Shown here piece after piece: positions 8,301 through 55,559 of a stretch of DNA of 64,000 bases (the stretch's first letter is position 1; each line of letters starts with the position of its first letter). The stretch is from a virus (taxonomy: Duplodnaviria; Heunggongvirae; Uroviricota; Caudoviricetes), in IMG/VR virus record IMGVR_UViG_2721755712_000001; one strand, 5' to 3'. The notes below the pieces were generated by a model. It was not told where the DNA came from. It saw nothing but the letters and a program-made list of their open reading frames with translations, and searched no databases. The translations under genes and the position numbers were made by a program.

Positions 8301-8320
8301 TCTGAAACAACTTGTTTTCT
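8301..8320 (-). promoter_or_regulatory. class I operator-like palindrome (AAACAACTTGTTTTCTT) upstream of parA, next to a GATAAT -10-like hexamer
   Basis: Member of a recurrent AACAA-N-TTGTT motif family; here the ATTATCG element lies on the other side of the core than at the other sites. Confidence 0.4.
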
Positions 8321-42802: not shown

Positions 42803-43369
42803 ATGAGTTGGTTAAAAGAATTATCATTTGTTGACACCACTGGCGCTAAGAAAAATCATTCTTTCTGGAAAGTCAGCGATCCTTCTGATTTTCTTGTTGG
42901 TGCTAATGCTGCTTTTGAATTGCTTAACTTTTATCAACGTTATCCAGAAATGAAACACAGTCCACTCCTGTACAGAATAACAAACGATATGAATAGGTCT
43001 GGTTTATTATCAAGTGAGTCAGCGAAAGGCTTTTTTAGCAAAATTACGCCTCACATATCATTCGATGCAACAAACGAAATTGATTATCTATCCACGAAAT
43101 CTCAAGAACAATTATCTGTACCACCTGAGAAAAAAGAAAGACGAATTGCCAGCATTGAAAATATATCGAAAGAGCTTCGCACAACAACGTTGAGGCTGCT
43201 GAACTTTCTTACGCTGCTTAATTGGATAGATGATCAAACATTGATTCCATCAACAGATGCGTTGGATAACAGAGTCCTTAGGCTGAACAAAAAATCGCAA
43301 TTTGGTTTTGTGTTCACCAAAAAAGGTGAAGATTTAATCAAAAGAAAATATAGATTATTGAATGATTAA
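42803..43369 (+). CDS. hypothetical protein
   Basis: Start at ATG 42803 with AAGGAG RBS; the RBS lies inside a perfect 9-bp hairpin (42772-42802); strong terminator hairpin at 43378-43406. Confidence 0.4.
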   Translation: MSWLKELSFVDTTGAKKNHSFWKVSDPSDFLVGANAAFELLNFYQRYPEMKHSPLLYRITNDMNRSGLLSSESAKGFFSKITPHISFDATNEIDYLSTKSQEQLSVPPEKKERRIASIENISKELRTTTLRLLNFLTLLNWIDDQTLIPSTDALDNRVLRLNKKSQFGFVFTKKGEDLIKRKYRLLND

Positions 43370-44656: not shown

Positions 44657-45178
44657 ATGGTTAAAGACATCACCTACGGCATACCGGCTGAAGTCTGGCC
44701 GCGAGACTACGAACATGCTGAAAACATACTTATGTTCTGGCGGAAGAACAACATTCCTGTAAGAGTCACGCTTGAAGACGGTCAGGTGTTTTGCATGTAC
44801 GTTCAGGGGACAATGCCTTCCCGCAATAAGCTAGATTTATGCCCGCTTCCATATGATAAAGAAAATCGTATAAGACTCCCACTTGAGCGCATTAGCACAA
44901 TTGAATCAGGTGTAATCGATGGCATTGCTCGCGAGTTCAAAGGTAGGCTAACAATACATCCAGACTATGTTGACAATCAGCCATCACGCCGTGACTTTTT
45001 TGCGATATGTCGCAAGGCTTATCAAAACGACCAATCTATAAGGGTCTACATGACAGACGGTCGTGAAATAGAAGGGGTGTCAAGAGGCGTTGATGCTTGC
45101 CAGGTCACTCTTAAGTTAGAAGACGGCAGAAAAATACTTGTTTTCTTCGATTGGGTTGAACGAATCCTTCCATTTTAA
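44657..45178 (+). CDS. hypothetical protein (internal duplication of a ~45-aa segment)
   Basis: 173 aa; two related segments (VRVTLEDGQVFCMYVQG / VTLKLEDGRKILVFFDW). Confidence 0.4.
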   Translation: MVKDITYGIPAEVWPRDYEHAENILMFWRKNNIPVRVTLEDGQVFCMYVQGTMPSRNKLDLCPLPYDKENRIRLPLERISTIESGVIDGIAREFKGRLTIHPDYVDNQPSRRDFFAICRKAYQNDQSIRVYMTDGREIEGVSRGVDACQVTLKLEDGRKILVFFDWVERILPF

Positions 45179-47018: not shown

Positions 47019-47501
47019 TTACACGCCATCAAGGATGTGGATGCGGTTGCTGGCGTATACATTCAGCATAAAGTTAGCGCAAAACAGTTTCCATGTATCA
47101 ACGCCAGCGGTATACGTAATGTTTTTGCATTTAATCGCATTGTTGGCGATCCGCATCCCCTGCGATACTGCTTCATCGTCGGAAAATTTGAACGACGATT
47201 GAGTTTTAATCCAGACAGAAATCTGCGTAGCGAACTCAATCAGCTTGGACTGGCAGAATCGCCCGGAGCGCACCGGAAAGACGAACGTTCCGAATCCAGA
47301 ATTTACCACATACGCTTTCTCAAATACCCGCGAGTAACGACGATTGCCAATGATGTCGCGTGCAATAATGCATTTTTCTTGTGCTGACAGTTCTACCGTC
47401 TCATTGTCGCGCCATGCACCAAGTACTCGTTTTTCAATGTCAGAGAACGTTACAGCGATATTGCCATGTGCGGGTGCGTTTACAGTAGCGATAAAATTCA
47501 T
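47019..47501 (-). CDS. hypothetical early protein
   Basis: 160 aa; class I promoter/operator upstream; iteron cluster A just downstream. Confidence 0.45.
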   Translation of the reverse strand: MNFIATVNAPAHGNIAVTFSDIEKRVLGAWRDNETVELSAQEKCIIARDIIGNRRYSRVFEKAYVVNSGFGTFVFPVRSGRFCQSKLIEFATQISVWIKTQSSFKFSDDEAVSQGMRIANNAIKCKNITYTAGVDTWKLFCANFMLNVYASNRIHILDGV

Positions 47502-47520
47502 GATTATTTCCTTATCGTAA

Positions 47521-47555
47521 ATAACAAATTGTTTTCTTGTTGGTGTTAATTATCG
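47521..47555 (-). promoter_or_regulatory. class I promoter/operator (minus strand CGATAAT-TAACACCAACAAGAAAACAATTTGTT)
   Basis: -10-like GATAAT with TTGACG 15 nt upstream, then a conserved leader ending in the AACAA-A-TTGTT palindrome. Confidence 0.5.
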
Positions 47556-47705
47556 TTGTACGAATAAGGCGTCAAAGTGGAAAGTTGCGGTAGCCGGACG
47601 AGAACAGGTGGGTTTGTCGGTTGCCTGGAGGTAAGAGGTTGGTGTTTTTAGCCTGCGGGAAACAGGATGGTCATTTAAGGCCACCAGCATTGGTGGCCTT
47701 AGTCT

Positions 47706-47993: not shown

Positions 47994-48006
47994 ATCCTCA
48001 CTGCGT

Positions 48007-48040
48007 AAACATATTGTTTTCTTGTTGGTGTAATTATCGC
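48007..48040 (-). promoter_or_regulatory. class I promoter/operator (CGATAAT-TACACCAACAAGAAAACAATATGTTT)
   Basis: Same architecture as the 47521-47555 site. Confidence 0.5.
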
Positions 48041-48322
48041 AGTGTAGATAAGGCATAAAAGAAGTTAATACAGGCTGAATACACAAGAAAGGTTCTGGAA
48101 GTTGATAGCCAGGTTTCAAACTAACCTTCGGTTATTAAAAGTCATTTAAGACCACCAATGCTGGTGGCCTTAATAATTATCGCCCGATTACGCTAAGGAT
48201 CTTTTCCTCAACTGATTTGTTGTTGCGACTAAACTGCCTTGCGTATCTGATGACAGAAGAGGCGTTTTGCTTTCTGACCATCTCGGCTCTTTCCTTCAGG
48301 CGTTTCTTGAAATCGCCCATAT

Positions 48323-48697
48323 TTACCACCAGGCGCAGAAGGTCAGTCTGTTATTGTGAAAGTCGTGGTTCTTAATCAGATCTTCCACAAGCTCTTTCAA
48401 CTCCCCCACATCATGCCAGTAACCTTCATCGTACTCCTGACTGCCGAAGAAAAAACCTTCCCGGGTAGGCAAGTACTCTTCGCAATTACTTTCGTTTATG
48501 TGCATCAAATGAGCCTTCAGAAAACAAATGTCATTCATCGTTAATTCTAAAAGCTCACAATTTTCGACTTCACCTACGTTGCGCTCCATCCACCCAACGA
48601 GCGCATTGAACTTACGGAAGTAAGCAACCTGCTTTCTGGATGCCTCGTTATTCAGATCGTTTTTAGGCTGTGTCTCGATATAGATATCAAGTCCCAT
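48323..48697 (-). CDS. hypothetical early protein
   Basis: ATG 48695-48697 with AAGGAAA RBS; 124 aa; class I-like palindrome upstream at 48757-48773. Confidence 0.45.
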   Translation of the reverse strand: MGLDIYIETQPKNDLNNEASRKQVAYFRKFNALVGWMERNVGEVENCELLELTMNDICFLKAHLMHINESNCEEYLPTREGFFFGSQEYDEGYWHDVGELKELVEDLIKNHDFHNNRLTFCAWW

Positions 48698-48814
48698 GAT
48701 GGTTTCCTTATTAAGTTGCTTCAGTGAAATCATTTTCACAAATCAGATAAGGCAGAAAACAAATTGTTATCGGGTATAAGAAAATGGCGCGGTTTACGCG
48801 CCATTTAAAGAGGA

Positions 48815-49210
48815 TTAAGCGAATACGCTTTCAGGGATTAAGGTGTCGGCAGGAATGCCAGAGGTAATGCGCAGACCGTACTGGCCAATCCAGGTGGTGC
48901 TGGTGTTCAGGCTGGAGGCGAATACGGTGTTAACCATATTCATCATGGTTTCAAACACCTCTTCATCAACCTGGCGGAAGTAGTTCTCGATTTTCAGCAG
49001 CAGAGGGTCAGTTGCATCGAGAATGGACTGGTATTGAGTCGCGTACTCGCCGCCGGAGGCATCACCTTTACGCACGATCGTACTGGCCTGGACTTCGGCA
49101 CCAGTTTCGGTGTTGTACGTAACAACGGTGATTTTTGCCACATTCTTACCTTCGGCGGTTTCAGAGGCATAGTAAACATCAACTGTCAGTTTTTCGCGTT
49201 TAACGGTCAT
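48815..49210 (-). CDS. hypothetical protein
   Basis: ATG 49208-49210 with GGAGAG RBS; 131 aa; class II motif upstream at 49253-49269. Confidence 0.45.
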   Translation of the reverse strand: MTVKREKLTVDVYYASETAEGKNVAKITVVTYNTETGAEVQASTIVRKGDASGGEYATQYQSILDATDPLLLKIENYFRQVDEEVFETMMNMVNTVFASSLNTSTTWIGQYGLRITSGIPADTLIPESVFA

Positions 49211-49336
49211 TTCACTCTCCGTAGTGTATTGGTTATTTTTATATTCTATGATCGTAAGTATGTACTTACAATACAAAAAAGCCCCGTAAGGATGGCGGGG
49301 CTGTCGTACTGTCGACTAATTACCACTTGCACATTA

Positions 49337-49648
49337 TCAGGCTATTGCCATCACTGATGCTCTCTGAATTTCTTGCTGGGCCACGCGGTTAACTTCCATC
49401 AAGGCCAGTTCGAGCTGATGTTCCGGCCACATTCTTTGAAATGCCACCCATCCTTTTCCACGCTGGCGACGAACATTCATTACATAACGAGTAAAGGTGT
49501 TTTTATCGAAAGACACCGCTGTTTCACGGAACAGACGAATAGAAGTTCCATTGGCAACGATGTCTAGCAAAGTTAATTGAGCAACCAGTGCAGGCTTCTC
49601 TTTTCTCTTCTGGTCTTTGTCCAGACCAAGAACCAATGATTTTTTCAT
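49337..49648 (-). CDS. hypothetical early protein
   Basis: ATG 49646-49648 with GGAG RBS; 103 aa; class I palindrome AACAACTTGTTTTC at 49661-49674. Confidence 0.4.
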   Translation of the reverse strand: MKKSLVLGLDKDQKRKEKPALVAQLTLLDIVANGTSIRLFRETAVSFDKNTFTRYVMNVRRQRGKGWVAFQRMWPEHQLELALMEVNRVAQQEIQRASVMAIA

Positions 49649-49801
49649 CACAACTCCGTAAACAACTTGTTTTCTCAATGGCGTAAATAATACCAGTAAG
49701 AAAACGGCTACAAAGCATAATGATCAGGTGCATGATCGATATGCAGGTTCCTCCCAGCGGCTATAGAGAAATTAAGCCAGCAATGCTGGCTTTGGTTGGG
49801 A

Positions 49802-50131
49802 TTACGCGAATACCTCAAGAAACTCCTGAACGTCCCAATGCTGGACGAGGTGAAGATAGACCTTAGAAATCACGTCATTTTCGCTATCGCATGTGAAGTA
49901 GTACTTCTGGCTGCGGTTGTATGTGTCCACACAAAATTCGCTCATATCCATAAAGTCAGCATCTTCACCCATGTCGCAAATCATCAAAGCAGGTGCGTCA
50001 TCACGAGTCATCAGCTCAAGCACCCACCGCGAATTGATCAGAGTGGAAGACCAACCTTCTAACTCATAAAACTGATCAAACTCTTTTTGAGTTAATTTCT
50101 TGATTTGGTTGATGTCGATATTTGCAAACAT
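49802..50131 (-). CDS. small acidic early protein (hypothetical; anti-defence candidate)
   Basis: ATG 50129-50131 with AAGGA RBS; 109 aa acidic; class I promoter/operator at 50144-50177 (the track's upstream ATG lies inside the operator). Confidence 0.45.
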   Translation of the reverse strand: MFANIDINQIKKLTQKEFDQFYELEGWSSTLINSRWVLELMTRDDAPALMICDMGEDADFMDMSEFCVDTYNRSQKYYFTCDSENDVISKVYLHLVQHWDVQEFLEVFA

Positions 50132-50310
50132 AAAGCAATCCTTAAACAACATGTTTTCTTGATGGTGTTATTATCGCAATAACGCACAGGCGAAAAAGGA
50201 TTTTATTCCGGTGAATGTGGTTTTGGCAGTGAGTTTTCAGGTTCAGTACCGAGTACACTTTTTACATTATTCTGATTTAGTGGCCGAAAGTGGCTGGTGG
50301 GCAGAATAAT

Positions 50311-50640
50311 CCTCTCCCCGAAAACCTACTGAAATCGATTGTGACCCGTTGGCTGTCTGGCACAATTACGCTGTAGCTGGGCATTCAGAGGGAATCCAGC
50401 GGTAAGCAAGTCCGCCTACGTGAGCGCCTCTCTTCTTCCCGCACATTACAGGTGGGTAGCCGCAACTCTCCCTCTCGCTATACCGGTACGCCACCGTTCC
50501 TGAACCGGCATCGAGCCTTCTCCCGAAATCCACACAGGCAACTCGACCGTTTCCCTGAAAACCTCCAGCCGTTCCCCGAAGGCAACCCAGCCGTTTCTGT
50601 AGCGGGATGCAGCCTTTTCCCTGTATGGACCGAAGGCTGA
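50311..50640. repeat. iteron-like direct repeat cluster B (~7 degenerate 22-bp units, consensus CCGTTTCCC-GAAAA...CAGC)
   Basis: e.g. CGTTTCCCTGAAAACCTCCAGC / CGTTCCCCGAAGGCAACCCAGC / CGTTTCTGTAGCGGGATGCAGC in register at 22-bp spacing; non-coding (track ORFs here are low-complexity artefacts). Confidence 0.6.
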
Positions 50641-50779
50641 CCGTAGGGGTGTTACGGGGGATAAAATCAGGAGTTGAATAAATACGAAAAAGGAGGCGAC
50701 ACCCCTCCTTCCCTCTCCACTTATACATACCTGGCTTCTTCGCTATACATGTTGTGTTTTCTTCGTGTTTTATCTGTCT

Positions 50780-51570
50780 CAACCTCTCTATAGGCGTTAA
50801 TGCTCACTCCTTCCAGAACGTTCTATACGGCGACTATTTCTGTTGGTGAATTGGGTGTGTTGTTTTCTCTGTCGGTGTATGTGGTTTCGTTAGTTTTGCG
50901 GTGATTCTTCTATGGGGTGTTCTCGTCGTTTTGGTGATTGTTCTTCTCCGTGTATGGAGTAATGGCAGGTGGGCGATTGCTTTCGTTATTGTGTTTGAGT
51001 TGTTTGTCTGGAGTGTGTGAAAGGCTTTTGTAGTTATTCGTGTATTGGGTAATGGCGTTTCCCGTGATTGTTACGCTTCGTGTCTTTTGGGATTGAGAGA
51101 AACCTTGCGGTTACAGGCTTCGTTGGGGTTTCAGCGGTTCAGGTGTTTCTTCGCTGTTTGGGTAATGGCGTGTCGTGGGTATCGCGCGTATGAATGTTTT
51201 CGGATTGCCTGTGAAAGTTAGGTTGGTTGTCCGGTAGCCTGAGAAGAAGAGGTGGGTCTTTTCGGTAGCCTGCCATAAAGAGGTTGGTTGTTATGGGGAA
51301 TGGCATATGTGTTATTTAGTTGTTTTGTTATAGCTGAAAATAAGTTGTTTATATAGTTATGTAACGCAATGGGAGTGATTTTGAGCGTGTGTTTTTGTTG
51401 GTAGTGTGTTGGGTCGTCTGTGGTGAAAATTGGACGCTGTGGCGCTGTCTGCTGCGTAGAATTACGGGTATAAGAAGTGATGTGTGAATACGTCAATTTT
51501 TTAGACCAAATCGGGTGAAAGCGTTGACGTTTCGTTGATCTGTTATTTAGTTGTTTTCTTATTGGTATAA
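50780..51570. repeat. GT-skewed non-coding tract (~800 bp) with several degenerate direct-repeat families
   Basis: Plus strand almost only G/T; repeated GGGTAATGGCG-type units (50951, 51041, 51150, 51290), CGGTAGCCTG x2 (51230-51275), TGTTATTTAGTTGTTTT x2 (51311, 51541); no credible ORF. Confidence 0.6.
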
Positions 51571-51703
51571 ACAACGTTAACCTATTGATATTTAAAGGTG
51601 TGATTGCAGGTATGGAAGAAGAGTAGTGGCGATCAACGGATTCTTATAGAAAAGAATCAAATTGTGACCGCCATTATCAACTGATTGATTAAGCTAATTA
51701 CAC

Positions 51704-52894
51704 TCAAACATCCCCGTTCTTAATCCACTGCCTGACTTGCTCGTCTTGTGCGACTTCTTTCTCATGTTTGGCAATATACAAGTCTGGCAATAGGGGTGGA
51801 GCGAATTCAGGCTCTGTCGCACGCCACTTTTCATATGCGTCACGCATGGATTTCTCAACATTCCAATGCTCCAACTCTTGGTATTCAATCGGCCAGTTAT
51901 CCTGCAATCTCTTCACTGCATTAGCCAGGTCGTATCGGAAGTAAGGATTAAGACCAATGAAATTACCAGCCAGCATGTCATCAACCTCCTTCACTCTGGC
52001 AATCTTAGAAAACTTACCAATAGCAATGTTGAGGTCCCAATCTGACACGAACAACAAAAGTGCTGCAAATGCCAGAAACTTAGCTTCCCCGTATGCTCTG
52101 TCGCTAACCGTTTTTGTCTGAAACTCAATGTAATTGCCCATCACAAAACTAGTAAGCTTACAGGTCTTACTTATCTCGTCCTCCAAATGCGATGGATCGA
52201 GAATTGTGCGGTCACGATTATTGTTTATGTGTTCTAAGATTACAGCAATGTCTCTATGTGAGACTGAAATTTCACGCAATTGCTGGAGAGTCTTGATGTG
52301 AACTCTTAGCACCTCTTTGTCAATCGCACGCTTCCAAGAAAAACCAGGCACAGTAACCTGAATGGGCGCGAAAGGTAGAATATCAGGAGTTGTCCATGCT
52401 AGATATGCATCACGTAACCCACTAATATAATAAAGCCAGTCTAAATGCTCGCTTTCTAACCATATTTCAAATGTGGAATCCTTTCGCTTATTGAAGAACC
52501 ATTCCCTCATCTGCCACATTTTTTCTTGAGTAAATATCCCTTCCTGTATGCCGGCACAGACCAGCTTTCGTATTACCTGCGAATACTTTGTTCGATCTTT
52601 TGTGAATGAGACAAGGTGCTGCTTCACCTCAGATGTTAGTCTATCTCCATAGAAATCACATGATGGATGATGGCCTTGACCATCTTCACCGGTAAATCTG
52701 AAATGCGCCTTCTTGTGATAGCCACCATTCCTAGTGGCTCTAACGAACGAACCACCTCCAACTTTGCAAATGGGGCAGATGATATCGTCACGGGCAATAG
52801 CATGAACCGAGCTGTCATCTAAATTCTTTAGCGCCAAGTACTGCTCAGGATCGACTTCTTTTTGTAACGATTTTGAAAAAGCGGTATCAGTCAT
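51704..52894 (-). CDS. hypothetical protein with N-terminal Cys/His zinc-ribbon-like motif (candidate replication initiator or DNA-binding protein)
   Basis: CPICK...HHPSC cluster near N-terminus; ~396 aa from ATG 52892-52894 (GGAG RBS); directly adjacent to the iteron/GT-rich region. Function inferred from context only. Confidence 0.45.
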   Translation of the reverse strand: MTDTAFSKSLQKEVDPEQYLALKNLDDSSVHAIARDDIICPICKVGGGSFVRATRNGGYHKKAHFRFTGEDGQGHHPSCDFYGDRLTSEVKQHLVSFTKDRTKYSQVIRKLVCAGIQEGIFTQEKMWQMREWFFNKRKDSTFEIWLESEHLDWLYYISGLRDAYLAWTTPDILPFAPIQVTVPGFSWKRAIDKEVLRVHIKTLQQLREISVSHRDIAVILEHINNNRDRTILDPSHLEDEISKTCKLTSFVMGNYIEFQTKTVSDRAYGEAKFLAFAALLLFVSDWDLNIAIGKFSKIARVKEVDDMLAGNFIGLNPYFRYDLANAVKRLQDNWPIEYQELEHWNVEKSMRDAYEKWRATEPEFAPPLLPDLYIAKHEKEVAQDEQVRQWIKNGDV

Positions 52895-53064
52895 TCCAAG
52901 CTCCGAGCAAGGGGTTATTTGTTCAATTATCATTCGGAATTATTTACTGTCTCGCCCAGTTTCACGTCATTTTATTCCCTAGTCTAGCTTTTCTAGGGTA
53001 TACAGCTTATTACAAGCTCCTCATTATTAACTGTTTCCGTAACTCATTGATCCGCTTATACACT

Positions 53065-53364
53065 CTACCAACACCAGCACTCAAGCCCTTCAACGATCGG
53101 CGCACCACAATCAAAATGTACAGAGTCAAAGCCTACATCAAGTACTTTCTGAATGTTAGCAATCGCGCCTTCGGATATACCATATCGACGCAAGTCGTCT
53201 TTCCAGACATCATCCTGTAACCCGGCGTGGACAATACAACCGCCATCAATTTGTGAAACCCAATCCAGCTCATTGCTTGCGATCATGAATCGGCGAGCAT
53301 CTTCCTCTGATGTATGAGATGAACTGATCAATGCCACCTGGTAGGCTTGGGTAATGTTCAACAT
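53065..53364 (-). CDS. hypothetical protein (last element-type gene before the chromosomal junction)
   Basis: ATG 53362-53364 with GGAGTGG RBS; two class I palindromes upstream (53378-53392, 53427-53442). Confidence 0.4.
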   Translation of the reverse strand: MLNITQAYQVALISSSHTSEEDARRFMIASNELDWVSQIDGGCIVHAGLQDDVWKDDLRRYGISEGAIANIQKVLDVGFDSVHFDCGAPIVEGLECWCW

Positions 53365-53376
53365 TTCAACCACTCC

Positions 53377-53445
53377 GAAACAATTTGTTTTCTTATGTGG
53401 CTTATTATCTCAATCAACAAAAGGTAGAAAACAAATTGTTTTAGG
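53377..53445 (-). promoter_or_regulatory. tandem class I operator-like palindromes (GAAACAATTTGTTTTC and GAAAACAAATTGTTTT) with GAGATAAT -10-like element between
   Basis: Two copies of the AACAA-N-TTGTT dyad 35 bp apart upstream of gene 53065..53364. Confidence 0.5.
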
Positions 53446-53479
53446 GCTTGTGTAAATCAGGAGGGATTGTGTCTATATG

Positions 53480-53512
53480 AAAATGCCCAGCGTGTTGCCG
53501 GGCATTGCGAAC
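53480..53512 (-). terminator. metG terminator (stem-loop with one mismatch + T-run)
   Basis: Minus-strand ATGCCCGGCAACACGCTGGGCAT followed by TTTCAT, ~15 nt after the metG stop. Confidence 0.5.
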
Positions 53513-53525
53513 AGAGGTTGCTTAA

Positions 53526-55559
53526 TTACTTAACCTGGTGGCCAGGTTTAGCACCAGCATCCGGGCTTAACAGGAAGATATCTTTCCCGCCGGGGCCAGC
53601 AGCCATCACCATACCTTCGGAGATGCCGAAGCGCATCTTACGCGGAGCCAGGTTAGCCACCATAATGGTGTGACGACCAATCAGTGCCTGTGGGTCTGGA
53701 TAAGCAGAACGGATGCCTGAGAAGACATTGCGTTTTTCACCGCCGAGATCCAGCGTCAGGCGCAGCAGTTTGTCAGAACCTTCAACAAACTCTGCGTTTT
53801 CGATCAGTGCCACGCGCAGGTCAACTTTGGCAAAGTCGTCAAAGGTGATGGTTTCCTGAATCGGGTCGTCTGCCAGCGGGCCAGTAACTGGCGCGGCAGT
53901 AGCTTTCACTTCTTCTTTAGACGCTTCCACCAATGCTTCCACCTGTTTCATGTCGATACGGTTATACAGTGCTTTGAACGGATTCACTTTATGGCCCAGC
54001 AGCGGTTGCTGGATGCCATCCCAGGTCAGTTCCGTATTCAGGAATGCTTCCGCACGTTCTGTCAGTTTCGGCAGTACCGGTTTCAGGTAAGTCATCAGCA
54101 CGCGGAACAGGTTGATGCCCATTGAGCAAATCGCCTGCAGGTCAGCATCGCGACCTTCCTGTTTTGCGACTACCCAAGGAGCCTGCTCGTCGACATAGCG
54201 GTTAGCCAGGTCAGCCAGTGCCATGATTTCACGGATAGCTTTACCAAATTCGCGGCTTTCCCACGCTTCACCAATCACTTCAGCGGCATCAGTGAAGGTT
54301 TTGTACAACTGCGGGTCAGCCAGCTCGCTTGCCAGCACACCGTCAAAACGCTTATTGATAAAGCCAGCGTTACGGGACGCCAGGTTAACCACTTTGTTCA
54401 CGATATCGGCATTCACACGCTGAACGAAATCCTCCAGGTTGAGATCGATATCATCAATGCGCGAAGAGAGTTTCGCAGTGTAGTAGTAACGCAGGCTGTC
54501 AGCGTCAAAATGATTCAACCAGGTGCTGGCTTTAATAAAGGTGCCGCGAGACTTGGACATCTTCGCGCCGTTCACCGTCACATAGCCGTGAACAAACAGG
54601 TTGGTCGGCTTGCGGAAGTTGCTGCCTTCCAGCATGGCAGGCCAGAACAGGCTGTGGAAGTAAACGATATCTTTACCGATGAAGTGGTACAGCTCGGCGG
54701 TGGAGTCTTTCTTCCAGTATTCATCGAAGCTGGTAGTGTCGCCGCGCTTGTCGCACAGATTCTTGAAGGAACCCATGTAGCCAATCGGTGCGTCCAGCCA
54801 GACGTAGAAATATTTACCCGGCGCGTTCGGAATTTCAAAACCGAAGTAAGGTGCGTCGCGGGAGATATCCCACTGTTGCAGACCAGATTCAAACCACTCC
54901 TGCATTTTGTTTGCCACCTGCTCCTGCAACGCACCGCTGCGGGTCCATGCCTGCAACATTTCGCTGAAAGAGGGCAGATCAAAGAAGAAGTGTTCAGAAT
55001 CACGCATTACCGGGGTAGCACCAGAAACCACCGATTTCGGCTCGATCAGTTCAGTCGGGCTGTAGGTCGCGCCGCAAACTTCACAGTTATCGCCGTATTG
55101 ATCTGGCGCTTTACATTTCGGGCAGGTGCCTTTCACAAAACGATCCGGCAGGAACATGCCTTTTTCCGGGTCGTACAACTGAGAGATAGTGCGATTTTTA
55201 ATAAAACCGTTCTCTTTCAGGCGAGTATAGATAAGCTCAGACAACTGACGGTTCTCTTCGCTGTGCGTCGAGTGATAGTTGTCATAGCTGATGTTAAAGC
55301 CTGCGAAATCAGTCTGGTGTTCCTGACTCATTTCGCCAATCATCTGCTCCGGTGTGATACCAAGTTGCTGTGCTTTCAGCATGATCGGCGTACCGTGGGC
55401 ATCGTCGGCACAGATGAAATTAACCTCGTGGCCGCGCATTCGCTGGTAACGAACCCAGACATCAGCCTGGATGTGCTCCAGCATATGGCCGAGGTGGATT
55501 GAGCCGTTAGCGTACGGCAGCGCGCACGTCACCAGAATTTTCTTCGCGACTTGGGTCAT
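53526..55559 (-). CDS. metG: methionyl-tRNA synthetase
   Basis: 677 aa from ATG 55557-55559 ([29 protein letters not shown]...); HIGH-type and KMSKS motifs; matches Escherichia-type MetG as recalled. Confidence 0.97.

Follow-up and report, generated by a model that had tools for sequence, protein, structure and literature searches.

Among the closest described counterparts of the locus analysed here are the rut regions of Rho-dependent terminators, such as lambda tR1 and those in long untranslated leaders. Like them, the tract would yield RNA that is untranslated, C-rich, G-poor and free of structure, it is co-directional with the upstream genes, RNA is lost past an expressed gene, and a hairpin comes after it. 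It differs from them in its length (∼8–10 times that of a typical rut region), its conserved oriented motifs, the rigid control block upstream of it and its conservation as a discrete cassette; the role of Rho is one that we infer here, as are the role as an insulator and any role of the motif arrays. The sponge RNAs CsrB/CsrC, RsmY/Z and CrcZ/CrcY resemble the tract as a long non-coding RNA candidate with a short repeated motif in an accessible context, and CrcZ is likewise CA-rich, but the motifs of the tract are GCCAUUAC and CAGGCUACCG rather than GGA or AAnAAnAA and are borne on a phage-plasmid. P1 c4, P4 CI and the N15 CA RNA are RNA immunity or antisense loci of phage-plasmids and satellites, and these RNAs are small (∼70–80 nt), structured and complementary to their targets. 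The tract is also a non-coding phage-plasmid locus with repeats shared with mRNA leaders elsewhere, but its leader-like elements have the same orientation as the leaders and its candidate RNA is ∼0.8 kb and unstructured. With iteron origins and incompatibility loci (P1 incA, F incC, lambda ori) the region shares 22-bp direct repeats at two-turn spacing, the absence of genes, further repeat families, T-rich 17-mers and inverted repeats; it differs in that no initiator gene adjoins it, its iterons do not resemble those of RepA and DnaA boxes are not conserved, and a 700-bp strand skew is not known from origins. The core CGGTAG..TG of the ops/JUMPStart element (RfaH) is identical in two tandem units of the tract (B units) and conserved across clades, although these units lack the first two G's, no upstream promoter was found and no plus-strand operon follows here. 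The unit TTCGGTAGCCTG matches the ops 12-mer GGCGGTAGnnTG at 9 of 12 positions, with G5, T6, G8 and T11 kept, and the count of CGGTAGNNTG is within the range of shuffles.

The window, the whole stretch of 64,000 nucleotides that was analysed, is a phage-plasmid of the SSU5/pECOH89 type with almost all of its genes on the minus strand. The skewed tract lies inside a 1.55-kb gap without genes, between minus-strand genes. This gap is present in more than 800 plasmids of six genera, and the non-coding locus, ∼1.4% of the genome, is kept in every member examined. The region to the right is a cargo hotspot that varies between relatives, in some of which the cargo is a plus-strand operon encoding DUF262 and a type I R-M system. 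The phage-plasmid encodes its own helicase, primase, Pol III alpha, ligase and RNase H, and a 64-kb derivative without virion still carries the tract. The repA gene (101–1315 of pECOH89) is ∼35 kb away around the circle and the RepA iterons are TATGCTGTCAGCGGT. Six kb from the tract, at 44657–45178, is a full-length gene of the FljA family of post-transcriptional repressors (PF03614, E 1e-80; C-terminus weakly Hfq-like), kept in all relatives including those from Klebsiella; the post-transcriptional mode of action of FljA is documented (PMC2652032). Elements of the SSU5/pHCM2/pKPHS2 type are common in clinical E. coli, Salmonella, Klebsiella, Enterobacter and Citrobacter, and bear resistance and defence cargo. 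In the searchable literature we found no description of lysogeny control or hotspot insulation in these elements, literature searches found no described RNA or origin for SSU5, pHCM2 or pKPHS2, and no earlier description of the tract was found. Among the candidate relatives, a 49-kb Klebsiella "plasmid" was merely a partial contig, the partial tract copies on 200-kb Klebsiella plasmids were IS-truncated fragments travelling with DUF262/R-M cargo, and a contig search with the 116-aa protein of the flank gave a single locus, which was uninformative.

The wider skewed zone extends over ∼50780–51570, where the plus strand contains 310 T, 241 G, 137 A and 103 C. A strong G+T skew had been proposed here in a sequence-only reading, and it is real, although the description of the plus strand as "almost only G and T" was overstated, the actual content being 69.7%. 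Across the 64 kb the mean G+T content of 200-nt windows is 49.9% (sd 4.6), while the best window (start 50851) reaches 79.5%, ∼6 SD above the mean, and every one of the top 13 lies within 50751–51550, an exceptional strand asymmetry. The skew calculation proposed in that reading gave a GC skew of +0.31 to +0.56 and an AT skew of −0.27 to −0.56 in the core. The cumulative GC skew of the whole plasmid has no turning point at the tract. As the plus strand is rich in G+T, a transcript of the minus strand would be rich in C and A: the 691-nt minus-strand RNA would contain 269 A, 218 C, 111 U and 93 G (C/G 2.34), and every 78-nt minus-strand window from 51622 down to 50843 has 17–29 C versus 4–14 G.

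The tract is non-coding. Its ORFs (58 aa on the plus strand, 118 aa on the minus strand) are driven by composition only and a Pfam search with them returned no match. The substitution rate in the homologue alignment is flat over codon phases, and gaps are mostly 1-nt indels (184 with a length of 1 mod 3, 60 of 2 mod 3 and 84 of 0 mod 3). The longest open frame shifts in frame and length even between close relatives, and depositors have called ORFs that differ from one another and lie on different strands. Start codons and SD motifs are few. Stop trinucleotides are depleted in all three minus-strand frames, which we attribute to the locking of TA in the motifs TTAC, ATAC and CTAC and not to coding. 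Some Salmonella-type copies have open frames of 217–227 codons; these do not stay open in close relatives and were rejected as genes. With no 3-nt periodicity, frame-preserving indels, conserved ORF or protein homologues, we rejected a gene, whether intact or degraded, in agreement with the earlier view that the tract has no ORF of normal composition; the "hypothetical proteins" that annotation pipelines currently place on it, inconsistently, are probably spurious.

The same tract was found in related elements, uninterrupted in ∼100 loci, so that it is not a peculiarity missing from near relatives. There is no insertion inside it in any locus, and the seeming insertions in some loci were artefacts of secondary BLAST hits to paralogous motifs. 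The G+T skew is kept in 12–21 homologues plus distant relatives, with 63–78% G+T per 100 nt in all homologues at 60–72% identity. Variable alignment columns are 67% G+T, and 60 columns exchange G and T versus 4 that exchange A and C. One relative, with a flanking protein of only 51% identity, still has the skew, although its motifs have diverged. The length between anchors varies by more than 100 bp (497–608 bp). The base composition of the tract is thus under constraint, and it is more faithfully conserved than the sequence.

The repeats claimed in the sequence-only reading, a four-copy family, a unit found twice and an exact 17-mer pair, are all present. The four-copy family consists of GGGTAATGGCG, exact at 51047 and 51160, and the variants GGAGTAATGGCA (50956) and TGGGGAATGGCA (51294). 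The unit CGGTAGCCTG is exact at 51232 and 51263 with a degenerate third unit at 51202, at a spacing of 30–31 bp, and two exact copies of the 17-mer TGTTATTTAGTTGTTTT lie 231 bp from each other, at 51310 and 51541. An oriented A motif, GTAATGGC, occurs 4–6 times per tract, at distances of 41–52 bp or multiples thereof (a ∼45-bp lattice), and the B motif, CGGTAGCCTG-N6-AGAGGTGGGT, occurs 2–3 times, ∼31 bp or three helical turns apart in all clades. Summed over seven diverged tracts, TAATGGC is ∼83-fold above first-order Markov expectation. The A motif has drifted in the most distant relative, while the third B unit (TTTTCGGTAGCCTG) is invariant across all homologues, and the B units have a paralogous copy at 47588–47650. 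A third element, the C motif of cassette leaders, is also found upstream of leftward genes at 8312, 47529, 48014 and 50151 (six matches versus 0.06 expected, all on the plus strand). Tandem Repeats Finder found nothing in the tract, and Chi-like octamers, considered as a sign of a recombination hotspot, are at shuffle level only. The A and B arrays suggest that a sequence-specific factor may also bind at the tract.

Features of the skewed tract and its surroundings (positions within the window).
Feature	Position	Strand	Basis or remark
Paralogous mini-locus: C motif, three B-type units (47588–47650), Chi-containing hairpin (47675–47702)	47529..47705		
Promoter/leader of next leftward cassette, TTTTCG-15-GATAAT then leader CACCATCAAGAAAACA	50151..50205	-	
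Six direct repeats of ∼22 bp (CAGCCGTTYCCCTGAAAACC type), the "iterons" beside the tract	50494..50634	+	
Hairpin then UUUUUCGUAUUUAUU, intrinsic-terminator-like 3' boundary of minus-strand unit	50686..50713	-	Terminator scan
Core, G+T-skewed (plus) / C+A-rich (minus), non-coding	50837..51425	-	Maximal-scoring G+T segment, 73.9% G+T
A-motif copy 1 (TTCTCCGTGTATGGAGTAATGGCAGGTG)	50938..50971	+	Direct-repeat family D2/D4; kept in all clades
A-motif copy 2 (…GTGTATTGGGTAATGGCGTTTC)	51028..51061	+	
A-motif copy 3 (…GCTGTTTGGGTAATGGCGTGTC)	51141..51174	+	
B units, three in tandem, 30–31 bp, (C)GGTAGCCTG-N6-A(A/G)AGGT(G/T)GGT	51202..51288	+	Family D3
A-motif copy 4, short form (TATGGGGAATGGCATAT)	51290..51306	+	
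17-mer TGTTATTTAGTTGTTTT copy 1, degenerate copy of cassette-leader C motif	51310..51326	+	
Rigid conserved control block	51465..51700		Alignments; right edge is boundary with variable cargo
Second copy of the 17-mer, continuous with C motif TTGTTTTCTTATTGGTA	51541..51567	+	
409-aa cargo gene, next gene right of tract	52933→51704	-	

The sequence-only reading had also raised a structured non-coding RNA, and this did not hold up. An Rfam search of 48000–54000 on both strands found no family at E ≤ 1, and the fold analysis on homologues that had been proposed (RNAalifold in sliding windows, both strands) found no consensus structure in the tract body, with an SCI of 0.00–0.38. The predicted folding energy of 150-nt windows has a mean of −37.3 kcal/mol (sd 8.0), and the windows with the least structure anywhere in the 64 kb are those of minus-strand tract RNA (−6.7, −7.6, −15.4 and −16.4 kcal/mol); plus-strand tract RNA has ordinary foldability. 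Neither YC nor CC dinucleotides are enriched beyond composition, AAnAAnAA occurs in 2–5 copies versus 1–2.8 in shuffles, and (ARN)4 is no more frequent than shuffling predicts.

Structure-like signals are confined to the 3' hairpin and the right-hand block. The left hairpin has the G+C-rich stem and U tract of an intrinsic terminator and is present at the same position in all clades, its U tract being weaker outside the clade of the window. Most of its 9 predicted pairs change between G·U and G·C or A·U on one side, and the helix is therefore favoured on the minus-strand RNA. At the other end, the control block contains GTATAAGA, the inverted repeat ACGTCAA-N28-TTGACGT, a loop-like CTTATAGAAA, nested inverted GTTGAY sites (51523, 51534 / 51632, 51676) and two GATC sites (51537, 51631). 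All clades have the same spacings of 53, 26 and 82 bp in this block, and in its candidate nested helices 90% of cells are paired versus 39–52% in slid controls. No convincing conserved sigma-70 promoter was found at the tract on either strand. The candidate TTGACG-18-TATACC (51496–51468) was rejected: its hexamers are conserved, its spacer is variable and the final T of the −10 hexamer is missing. Only the promoter of the downstream leftward cassette qualifies, as the one promoter-like site predicted consistently (at least 8 of 11 homologues). The leaders of the leftward cassettes are CACCAACAAGAAAACAA, and the layout of the tract resembles that of these neighbours: leader motif, body, hairpin. 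The six ∼22-bp repeats, spaced by 22, 31, 22, 22 and 22 bp, adjoin the G+T tract and are not within it; even the most distant relative has their motif CCGTTTCCC. Their sequence differs from that of the RepA iterons, and we rejected them as such.

In published strand-resolved RNA-seq of LF82 carrying Cyrano (GEO GSE154648), the upstream cargo gene CYRAN_102 is expressed at ∼57 FPKM in LB, with log2 values of up to 9.2 in other LF82 conditions (PMC9928086 S1 Table). CYRAN_103, which lies inside the tract 110 nt downstream of CYRAN_102 on the same strand, has an FPKM of 0 in the LB lysogen and at most ∼14 in the other listed LF82 conditions (PMC9928086 S1 Table). The CYRAN_103 counts appear to refer to its own (minus) strand.

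Our preferred reading, to which we give a probability of roughly 0.3, is that the tract is an extended Rho-loading insulator cassette, an untranslated transcription stop. The tract would be the body of a minus-strand non-coding cassette, on the gene-bearing strand of the phage-plasmid. RNA polymerase leaving the cargo region leftward would transcribe ∼0.8 kb of untranslated RNA that, being C/A-rich, G-poor and unfoldable, would repeat the signature of a rut region many times over. Rho would load on this RNA and terminate transcription, and the hairpin at 50713–50686 would catch the polymerases that escape. In this way expression of the hotspot cargo would be kept from entering the conserved leftward cassettes, each with a promoter and leader of its own. 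This reading is consistent with the identity of the element and the minus-strand genes on either side, with a tract that is non-coding (flat codon phases, non-triplet gaps, no Pfam match), and with an excess of C over G that extends over 691 nt, versus the at least 80 nt of a rut region. The minus-strand RNA is the least folded of the 64 kb, composition is constrained, the G·U hairpin is conserved at the minus-strand 3' end, the cassette layout is shared with the neighbours, a variable hotspot lies on the right, and signal drops from CYRAN_102 to the co-oriented CYRAN_103. A giant Rho-loading insulator, if true, would illustrate how a hotspot of gene swaps is kept transcriptionally safe on mobile elements. 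On the other side, a typical rut region is ∼80–100 nt and the insulator has no need of 700 nt; it leaves unexplained the 4–6 oriented GTAATGGC copies on their ∼45-bp lattice and the three B units at 31 bp, and does not account for the rigidly spaced upstream control block or the neighbouring 22-bp repeats. YC dinucleotides are at the level expected from composition, the drop in RNA-seq signal could equally come from a terminator in the 3' end of the cargo gene or from RNA instability, and the variable length fits an RNA spacer without proving one. The link of Rho to the region comes from inference rather than experiment.

In a second, doubtful reading, the minus strand would encode a lytic-phase long non-coding sponge or scaffold RNA. 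Repressed in the lysogen, it would on derepression give a 0.75–0.85-kb unfolded CA-rich RNA that displays repeated GCCAUUAC(C)C and ACCCACCUCUU-N6-CAGGCUACCG motifs and titrates an RNA-binding protein; candidate partners are the element's own FljA-like/Hfq-like protein, Rho and GU-rich host sRNAs (GcvB-type seeds). Over-represented, oriented motifs in an unstructured context are the architecture of CsrB and CrcZ, the minus-strand 5' end has a conserved promoter- or operator-like block and the 3' end a hairpin, the minus strand is silent in the lysogen, and the nearby FljA-family repressor is conserved in all relatives. Set against this, the LF82 values for CYRAN_103 are not those of an abundant transcript, a convincingly conserved sigma-70 promoter is missing, the known sponge motifs are not enriched (GGA is rare) and the A motif drifts in the most distant relative. 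Any likeness to the fliC leader, a known FljA target, is not significant, and we rejected mimicry of that leader (best match 9 nt, equalled by 77% of shuffles). The stronger version, a dedicated 0.8-kb unfoldable C/A-rich motif array that is switched on at induction as a sink for Rho, for the FljA/Hfq-like repressor or for GU-rich sRNAs and flips the leader-controlled cassettes from lysogenic to lytic, is improbable; if true, an RNA that soaks up Rho would be a phage anti-termination strategy built from RNA, not protein. The arrays could also act at the level of DNA, where A, B, the GTTGAY cluster and the 22-bp repeats would be oriented sites to which a protein of the phage-plasmid binds; the locus could be a lytic replication origin, serve copy control or handcuffing, be a centromere or act as a hub for global regulators. 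A protein-binding array and an origin-associated region next to the iterons had both been suggested in the sequence-only reading. The G+T skew would then be a by-product, either of G+T-rich sites that lie densely together or of an unwinding step that exposes single-stranded DNA on one particular strand. We consider such a nucleoprotein site unlikely as well. The two-turn spacing of the six 22-bp repeats, the regular distances of the B units and A motifs and the exactly conserved spacing of the nested inverted repeats argue for it. So do the AT-rich 17-mers on the T strand, the E. coli-clade form of which, GATCTGTTATTTA, resembles the oriC 13-mer consensus GATCTnTTnTTTT. B units recur directly upstream of another cassette promoter, the element has replication proteins of its own, and the virion-less derivative retains the tract. 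However, the bias also holds at variable positions between the motifs and in the relative with changed motifs, the asymmetry in foldability indicates a single-strand property, and the hairpin prefers the RNA of one strand. The body length differs by more than 100 bp, RepA and its distinct iterons are elsewhere, DnaA boxes and IHF sites are not conserved (the window has no perfect DnaA box) and cumulative skew does not turn at the tract. A sponge RNA or an origin, if true, would identify the missing regulator or the lytic origin of the family.

That the foldability of the plus strand is unremarkable weighs against a GU-rich RNA of that strand as the product, a quite improbable reading in which 2–3 copies of the anti-leader UUGUUUUCUUGUUGGUG would be antisense to the CA-rich cassette leaders, the ops-like B units might attract RfaH, and a long nested hairpin at 51522–51685 would form the end of the RNA. 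CGGTAGCCTG has the 9/12 match to ops noted above, including the four positions G5, T6, G8 and T11 at which substitutions are most damaging (PMC5995543). Plus-strand copies of the C motif could pair with the cassette leaders, the right-block consensus has many exchanges of U·G and U·A that are workable on the plus strand alone, the CYRAN_103 counts are apparently for the minus strand only, and some relatives have the plus-strand DUF262 and type I R-M operon to the right. Yet neither a promoter nor a terminator is predicted for the plus strand within the tract or to its left, the next gene rightward is here on the opposite strand, the three occurrences of CGGTAGNNTG in the window are reached by 12 of 100 shuffles, and U·G-rich helices are readily over-predicted in GU-rich sequence. 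The tract could lastly be evolutionary debris, decayed tandem duplications of the intergenic regulatory DNA of the cassettes (leader C motif and B units) with no function of its own. Its promoter-less copies of the C leader and B units, known from a working cassette junction, are what such debris would contain, but this is highly unlikely for a locus that can be aligned over its full length, with no interruption, in more than 800 plasmids of six or more genera at 60–70% identity, with the skew preserved at variable sites and sub-blocks that are invariant.

The 1.55-kb non-coding locus is very likely a central control element, and under either kind of reading it is a defined and easily deleted experimental target. 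The paralogous mini-locus to its left is placed between two leftward cassettes and is kept in all clades.

The tract lies inside a 1.55-kb gene-free gap (50153-51703) flanked by two minus-strand genes, the minus strand carrying nearly all genes of the element. Between 50780 and 51570 the plus strand contains 310 T, 241 G, 137 A and 103 C. The sequence-only reading had the skew and the rest of its description right and overstated the case only in calling the strand almost exclusively G and T (69.7% G+T); the repeats it listed were all present at their positions. The peak 200-nt window (start 50851) reaches 79.5% G+T as compared to a mean of 49.9% (sd 4.6) window-wide, the top 13 G+T windows of this size in the 64 kb all fall within 50751-51550, and the G+T segment with the maximal score is 50837-51425.

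The tract is 95-98% identical to that of the SSU5-family E. coli phage-plasmids pECOH89, phage Cyrano (pLF82) and PhiR41_1. In a sensitive search the gap was recovered from 838 plasmid records, spanning Klebsiella, Escherichia, Enterobacter, Salmonella, Citrobacter and Cronobacter; most copies are 60-80% identical and of similar length. Depositors either left the gap unannotated or placed small ORFs on one strand or the other that do not agree between records. No insertions were found inside the tract in ∼100 loci examined, and a 64-kb E. albertii derivative without virion genes still carries it.

Base composition itself is conserved. Every homologue maintains 63-78% G+T per 100 nt over ∼700 bp at just 60-72% identity to the window. 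Within 50837-51425, G+T is 76% in invariant and 67% in variable columns, with 60 columns varying between G and T and four between A and C. In the most divergent relative found, whose flanking 160-aa protein is 51% identical, a syntenic ∼900-bp tract has 63-70% G+T; the motif GTAATGGC is changed to GATGGCAGGTA, while the neighbouring repeats retain their CCGTTTCCC core and the GTTGAY cluster is kept.

The proposal that the tract is non-coding held up. Across 21 representatives (pairwise identity <97%), variability shows no codon-phase periodicity, alignment gaps have lengths of 1 mod 3 in 184 cases vs 0 mod 3 in 84, the longest open frame shifts in frame and length even between close relatives, and the tract ORFs have no Pfam match; these results mark the tract as non-coding. 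The stop trinucleotides TAA, TAG and TGA are depleted in all three minus-strand frames of 50790-51465 and its homologues in most clades, relative to dinucleotide-preserving shuffles (8-12 seen vs ∼23 expected in Salmonella, Enterobacter and Cronobacter types), so that non-conserved open frames as long as 227 codons arise by chance. The suggestion of a structured RNA found no support, with no Rfam match at E<=1 and a structure conservation index (SCI) of 0.00-0.38 in RNAalifold sliding windows on both strands.

Features in and around the gap and related sites elsewhere in the window
Feature	Position	Strand	Remarks
C motif TTGTTTTCTTRTKGGTG	8312, 47529, 48014, 50151, 51551	+	weaker match at 42886, inside an ORF
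Mini-locus	47529-47705		C motif, three B-type units, hairpin; between two cassettes; conserved in all clades
116-aa ORF	49802-50152	-	left flank of gap
Promoter and leader	50151-50205		next leftward cassette
Chi site GCTGGTGG	50293-50300		conserved beside the 22-bp repeats in most clades
Six direct repeats, ∼22 bp	50494-50634		CAGCCGTTYCCCTGAAAACC type; spacings 22, 31, 22, 22, 22
Hairpin	50686-50713		left of G+T tract
A motifs	within G+T tract		core GTAATGGC; four copies in window
B units	51202-51288		three, 30-31 bp
17-mer	51310 and 51541		two copies, second continues into C motif
Rigid control block	51465-51700		internal spacings 53, 26, 82 bp, identical in every clade
409-aa ORF	51704-52933	-	right flank of gap; protein of unknown family

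Three lines of evidence favour the minus strand. Its predicted transcript (A 39%, C 32%, U 16%, G 13%; C/G 2.34) contains the least foldable 150-nt windows of the 64 kb (-6.7, -7.6, -15.4 and -16.4 kcal/mol vs a mean of -37.3, sd 8.0), and this exceptional lack of structure is confined to that strand, plus-strand folding being unremarkable (-29 to -39 vs a mean of -35.4). The hairpin at 50713-50686 is found in all clades and is followed in this window by UUUUUCGUAUUUAUU; at most of its nine pairs G·U alternates with G·C or with A·U, exchanges that are compatible only with minus-strand RNA. The order of leader-like motif, body and hairpin is that of the neighbouring minus-strand cassettes. There is a slim chance that the functional product is instead a GU-rich plus-strand RNA. 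The B-unit core CGGTAGCCTG shares 9 of 12 positions with the RfaH ops element, among them the four most critical (PMC5995543), although the number of such cores is inside the chance range. On the plus strand, the control block at the right end is compatible with nested helices rich in U·G pairs (paired cells 90% vs 39-52% in slid controls), but its inverted repeats might equally be DNA binding sites, and neither a promoter nor a terminator is predicted on that strand.

The physical property with the strongest support is a long untranslated, C-rich, G-poor, structure-free predicted RNA on the strand transcribed throughout the genome, a signature shared with Rho-loading regions. A hairpin bounds the candidate RNA, and the cargo slot immediately upstream of it is variable and expressed. 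This signature favours an insulator cassette, to which we give a probability of roughly 0.3: Rho-dependent termination would act on leftward transcripts entering the tract, the intrinsic hairpin would serve as a backup, and the conserved downstream cassettes would be protected. This region is covered by published strand-resolved RNA-seq data for the Cyrano-carrying E. coli strain LF82 (PMC9928086, S1 Table). The cargo gene immediately upstream on the minus strand, CYRAN_102, is expressed at ∼57 FPKM in LB (log2 <=9.2 in other conditions), while CYRAN_103, an ORF call within the tract starting 110 nt downstream, sits at the floor of the scale (FPKM 0), which applies to the minus strand only as the per-gene counts appear strand-specific. 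Low signal continues across CYRAN_104 and CYRAN_105, indicating that no stable minus-strand tract RNA is present in the lysogen and that upstream transcription is not carried in.

The insulator reading accounts neither for the motif arrays nor for the rigid control block or the tract length, so three rivals stay live. An RNA acting as sponge or scaffold in the lytic phase and a DNA nucleoprotein array or origin are equally unlikely, and the GU-rich plus-strand RNA is less likely still; decay debris is very unlikely. Literature searches turned up no account of this locus, and for SSU5-type elements none of an RNA or a lytic origin. If true, the insulator would be an unusually large and elaborate form of a known mechanism, and an RNA sink would be considerably more novel.

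Other clades have as many as six A motifs, arranged on a ∼45-bp lattice, TAATGGC is ∼83-fold above expectation summed across seven clades, and the tract body between anchors measures 497-608 bp. The fixed elements of the control block are GTATAAGA, ACGTCAA-N28-TTGACGT, the C motif and GCGATCAACG; candidate roles for the block are operator complex, recombination core and RNA element. Inverted GTTGAY repeats are nested inside it, and it contains CTTATAGAAA, which is invariant and lies between inverted arms that differ from clade to clade (GATTCTT/AAGAATC in E. coli; for the distant relative L113, TCAACCTCTC/GAGAGGTTGA). All six C-motif occurrences in the window are on the plus strand (expected number 0.06), and four sites (8312, 47529, 48014 and 50151) are directly upstream of a leftward gene. 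Its minus-strand reading, CACCAACAAGAAAACAA, directly follows a GATAAT -10 hexamer and precedes the start codons of leftward genes by 25-35 nt; it looks like a common CA-rich leader or regulon signal. In the mini-locus, the B-type units are GCGGTAGCCGG… and GTCGGTTGCCTGG…AAGAGGTTGGT; a predicted plus-strand promoter-like site (47479-47507) and terminator (47675-47702) would yield a ∼190-nt antisense RNA against the 160-aa gene's leader. The cassette terminator hairpins at 47675-47702 and 48146-48173 are built of Chi and its complement (GGCCACCAGCATTGGTGGCC). The iterons of RepA (TATGCTGTCAGCGGT) are unrelated to the 22-bp repeats and, like RepA itself, lie ∼35 kb from the tract. The short A motif of Salmonella/Cronobacter-type loci, TGTGGGTAATGGC, reads TTACCCACA on the other strand, one mismatch from a DnaA box; a Cronobacter copy (L044 3245) is a perfect TTATCCACA, and copies in this window do not fit.

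From 51704 rightward of the conserved block the DNA is a swap hotspot whose contents differ by element (including L039-L047 and L110): the 409-aa protein, a coiled-coil protein, small ORFs, a GIY-YIG nuclease, DUF6602, or DUF262 with type I R-M. The cargo junction directly follows CTTATAGAAAT in two loci. An IS-truncated right half of the tract accompanies DUF262/type I R-M cargo in a 263-kb K. pneumoniae plasmid (L048 3719-4466) and similar 200-kb plasmids; such copies in large non-phage plasmids point to exchange between phage-plasmids and conventional plasmids. Farther right (∼53.5-57 kb; pECOH89 80165-83456) the element carries genes on opposite strands for a methionyl-tRNA synthetase and a MinD/ParA-like ATPase; the latter, annotated ApbC, is expressed in the LF82 lysogen (CYRAN_99, ∼92 FPKM).

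At 44657-45178 the plus strand encodes a full-length member of the FljA family (repressor of phase-1 flagellin; PF03614, E 1e-80, profile 1-170 of 170). FljA proteins act post-transcriptionally on fliC mRNA (PMC2652032). Residues 122-164 have a weak, sub-threshold Hfq-like match. The gene is kept at the same position in all relatives examined, Klebsiella contigs included, and since Klebsiella is normally without flagella, this conservation suggests a target within the phage-plasmid itself.
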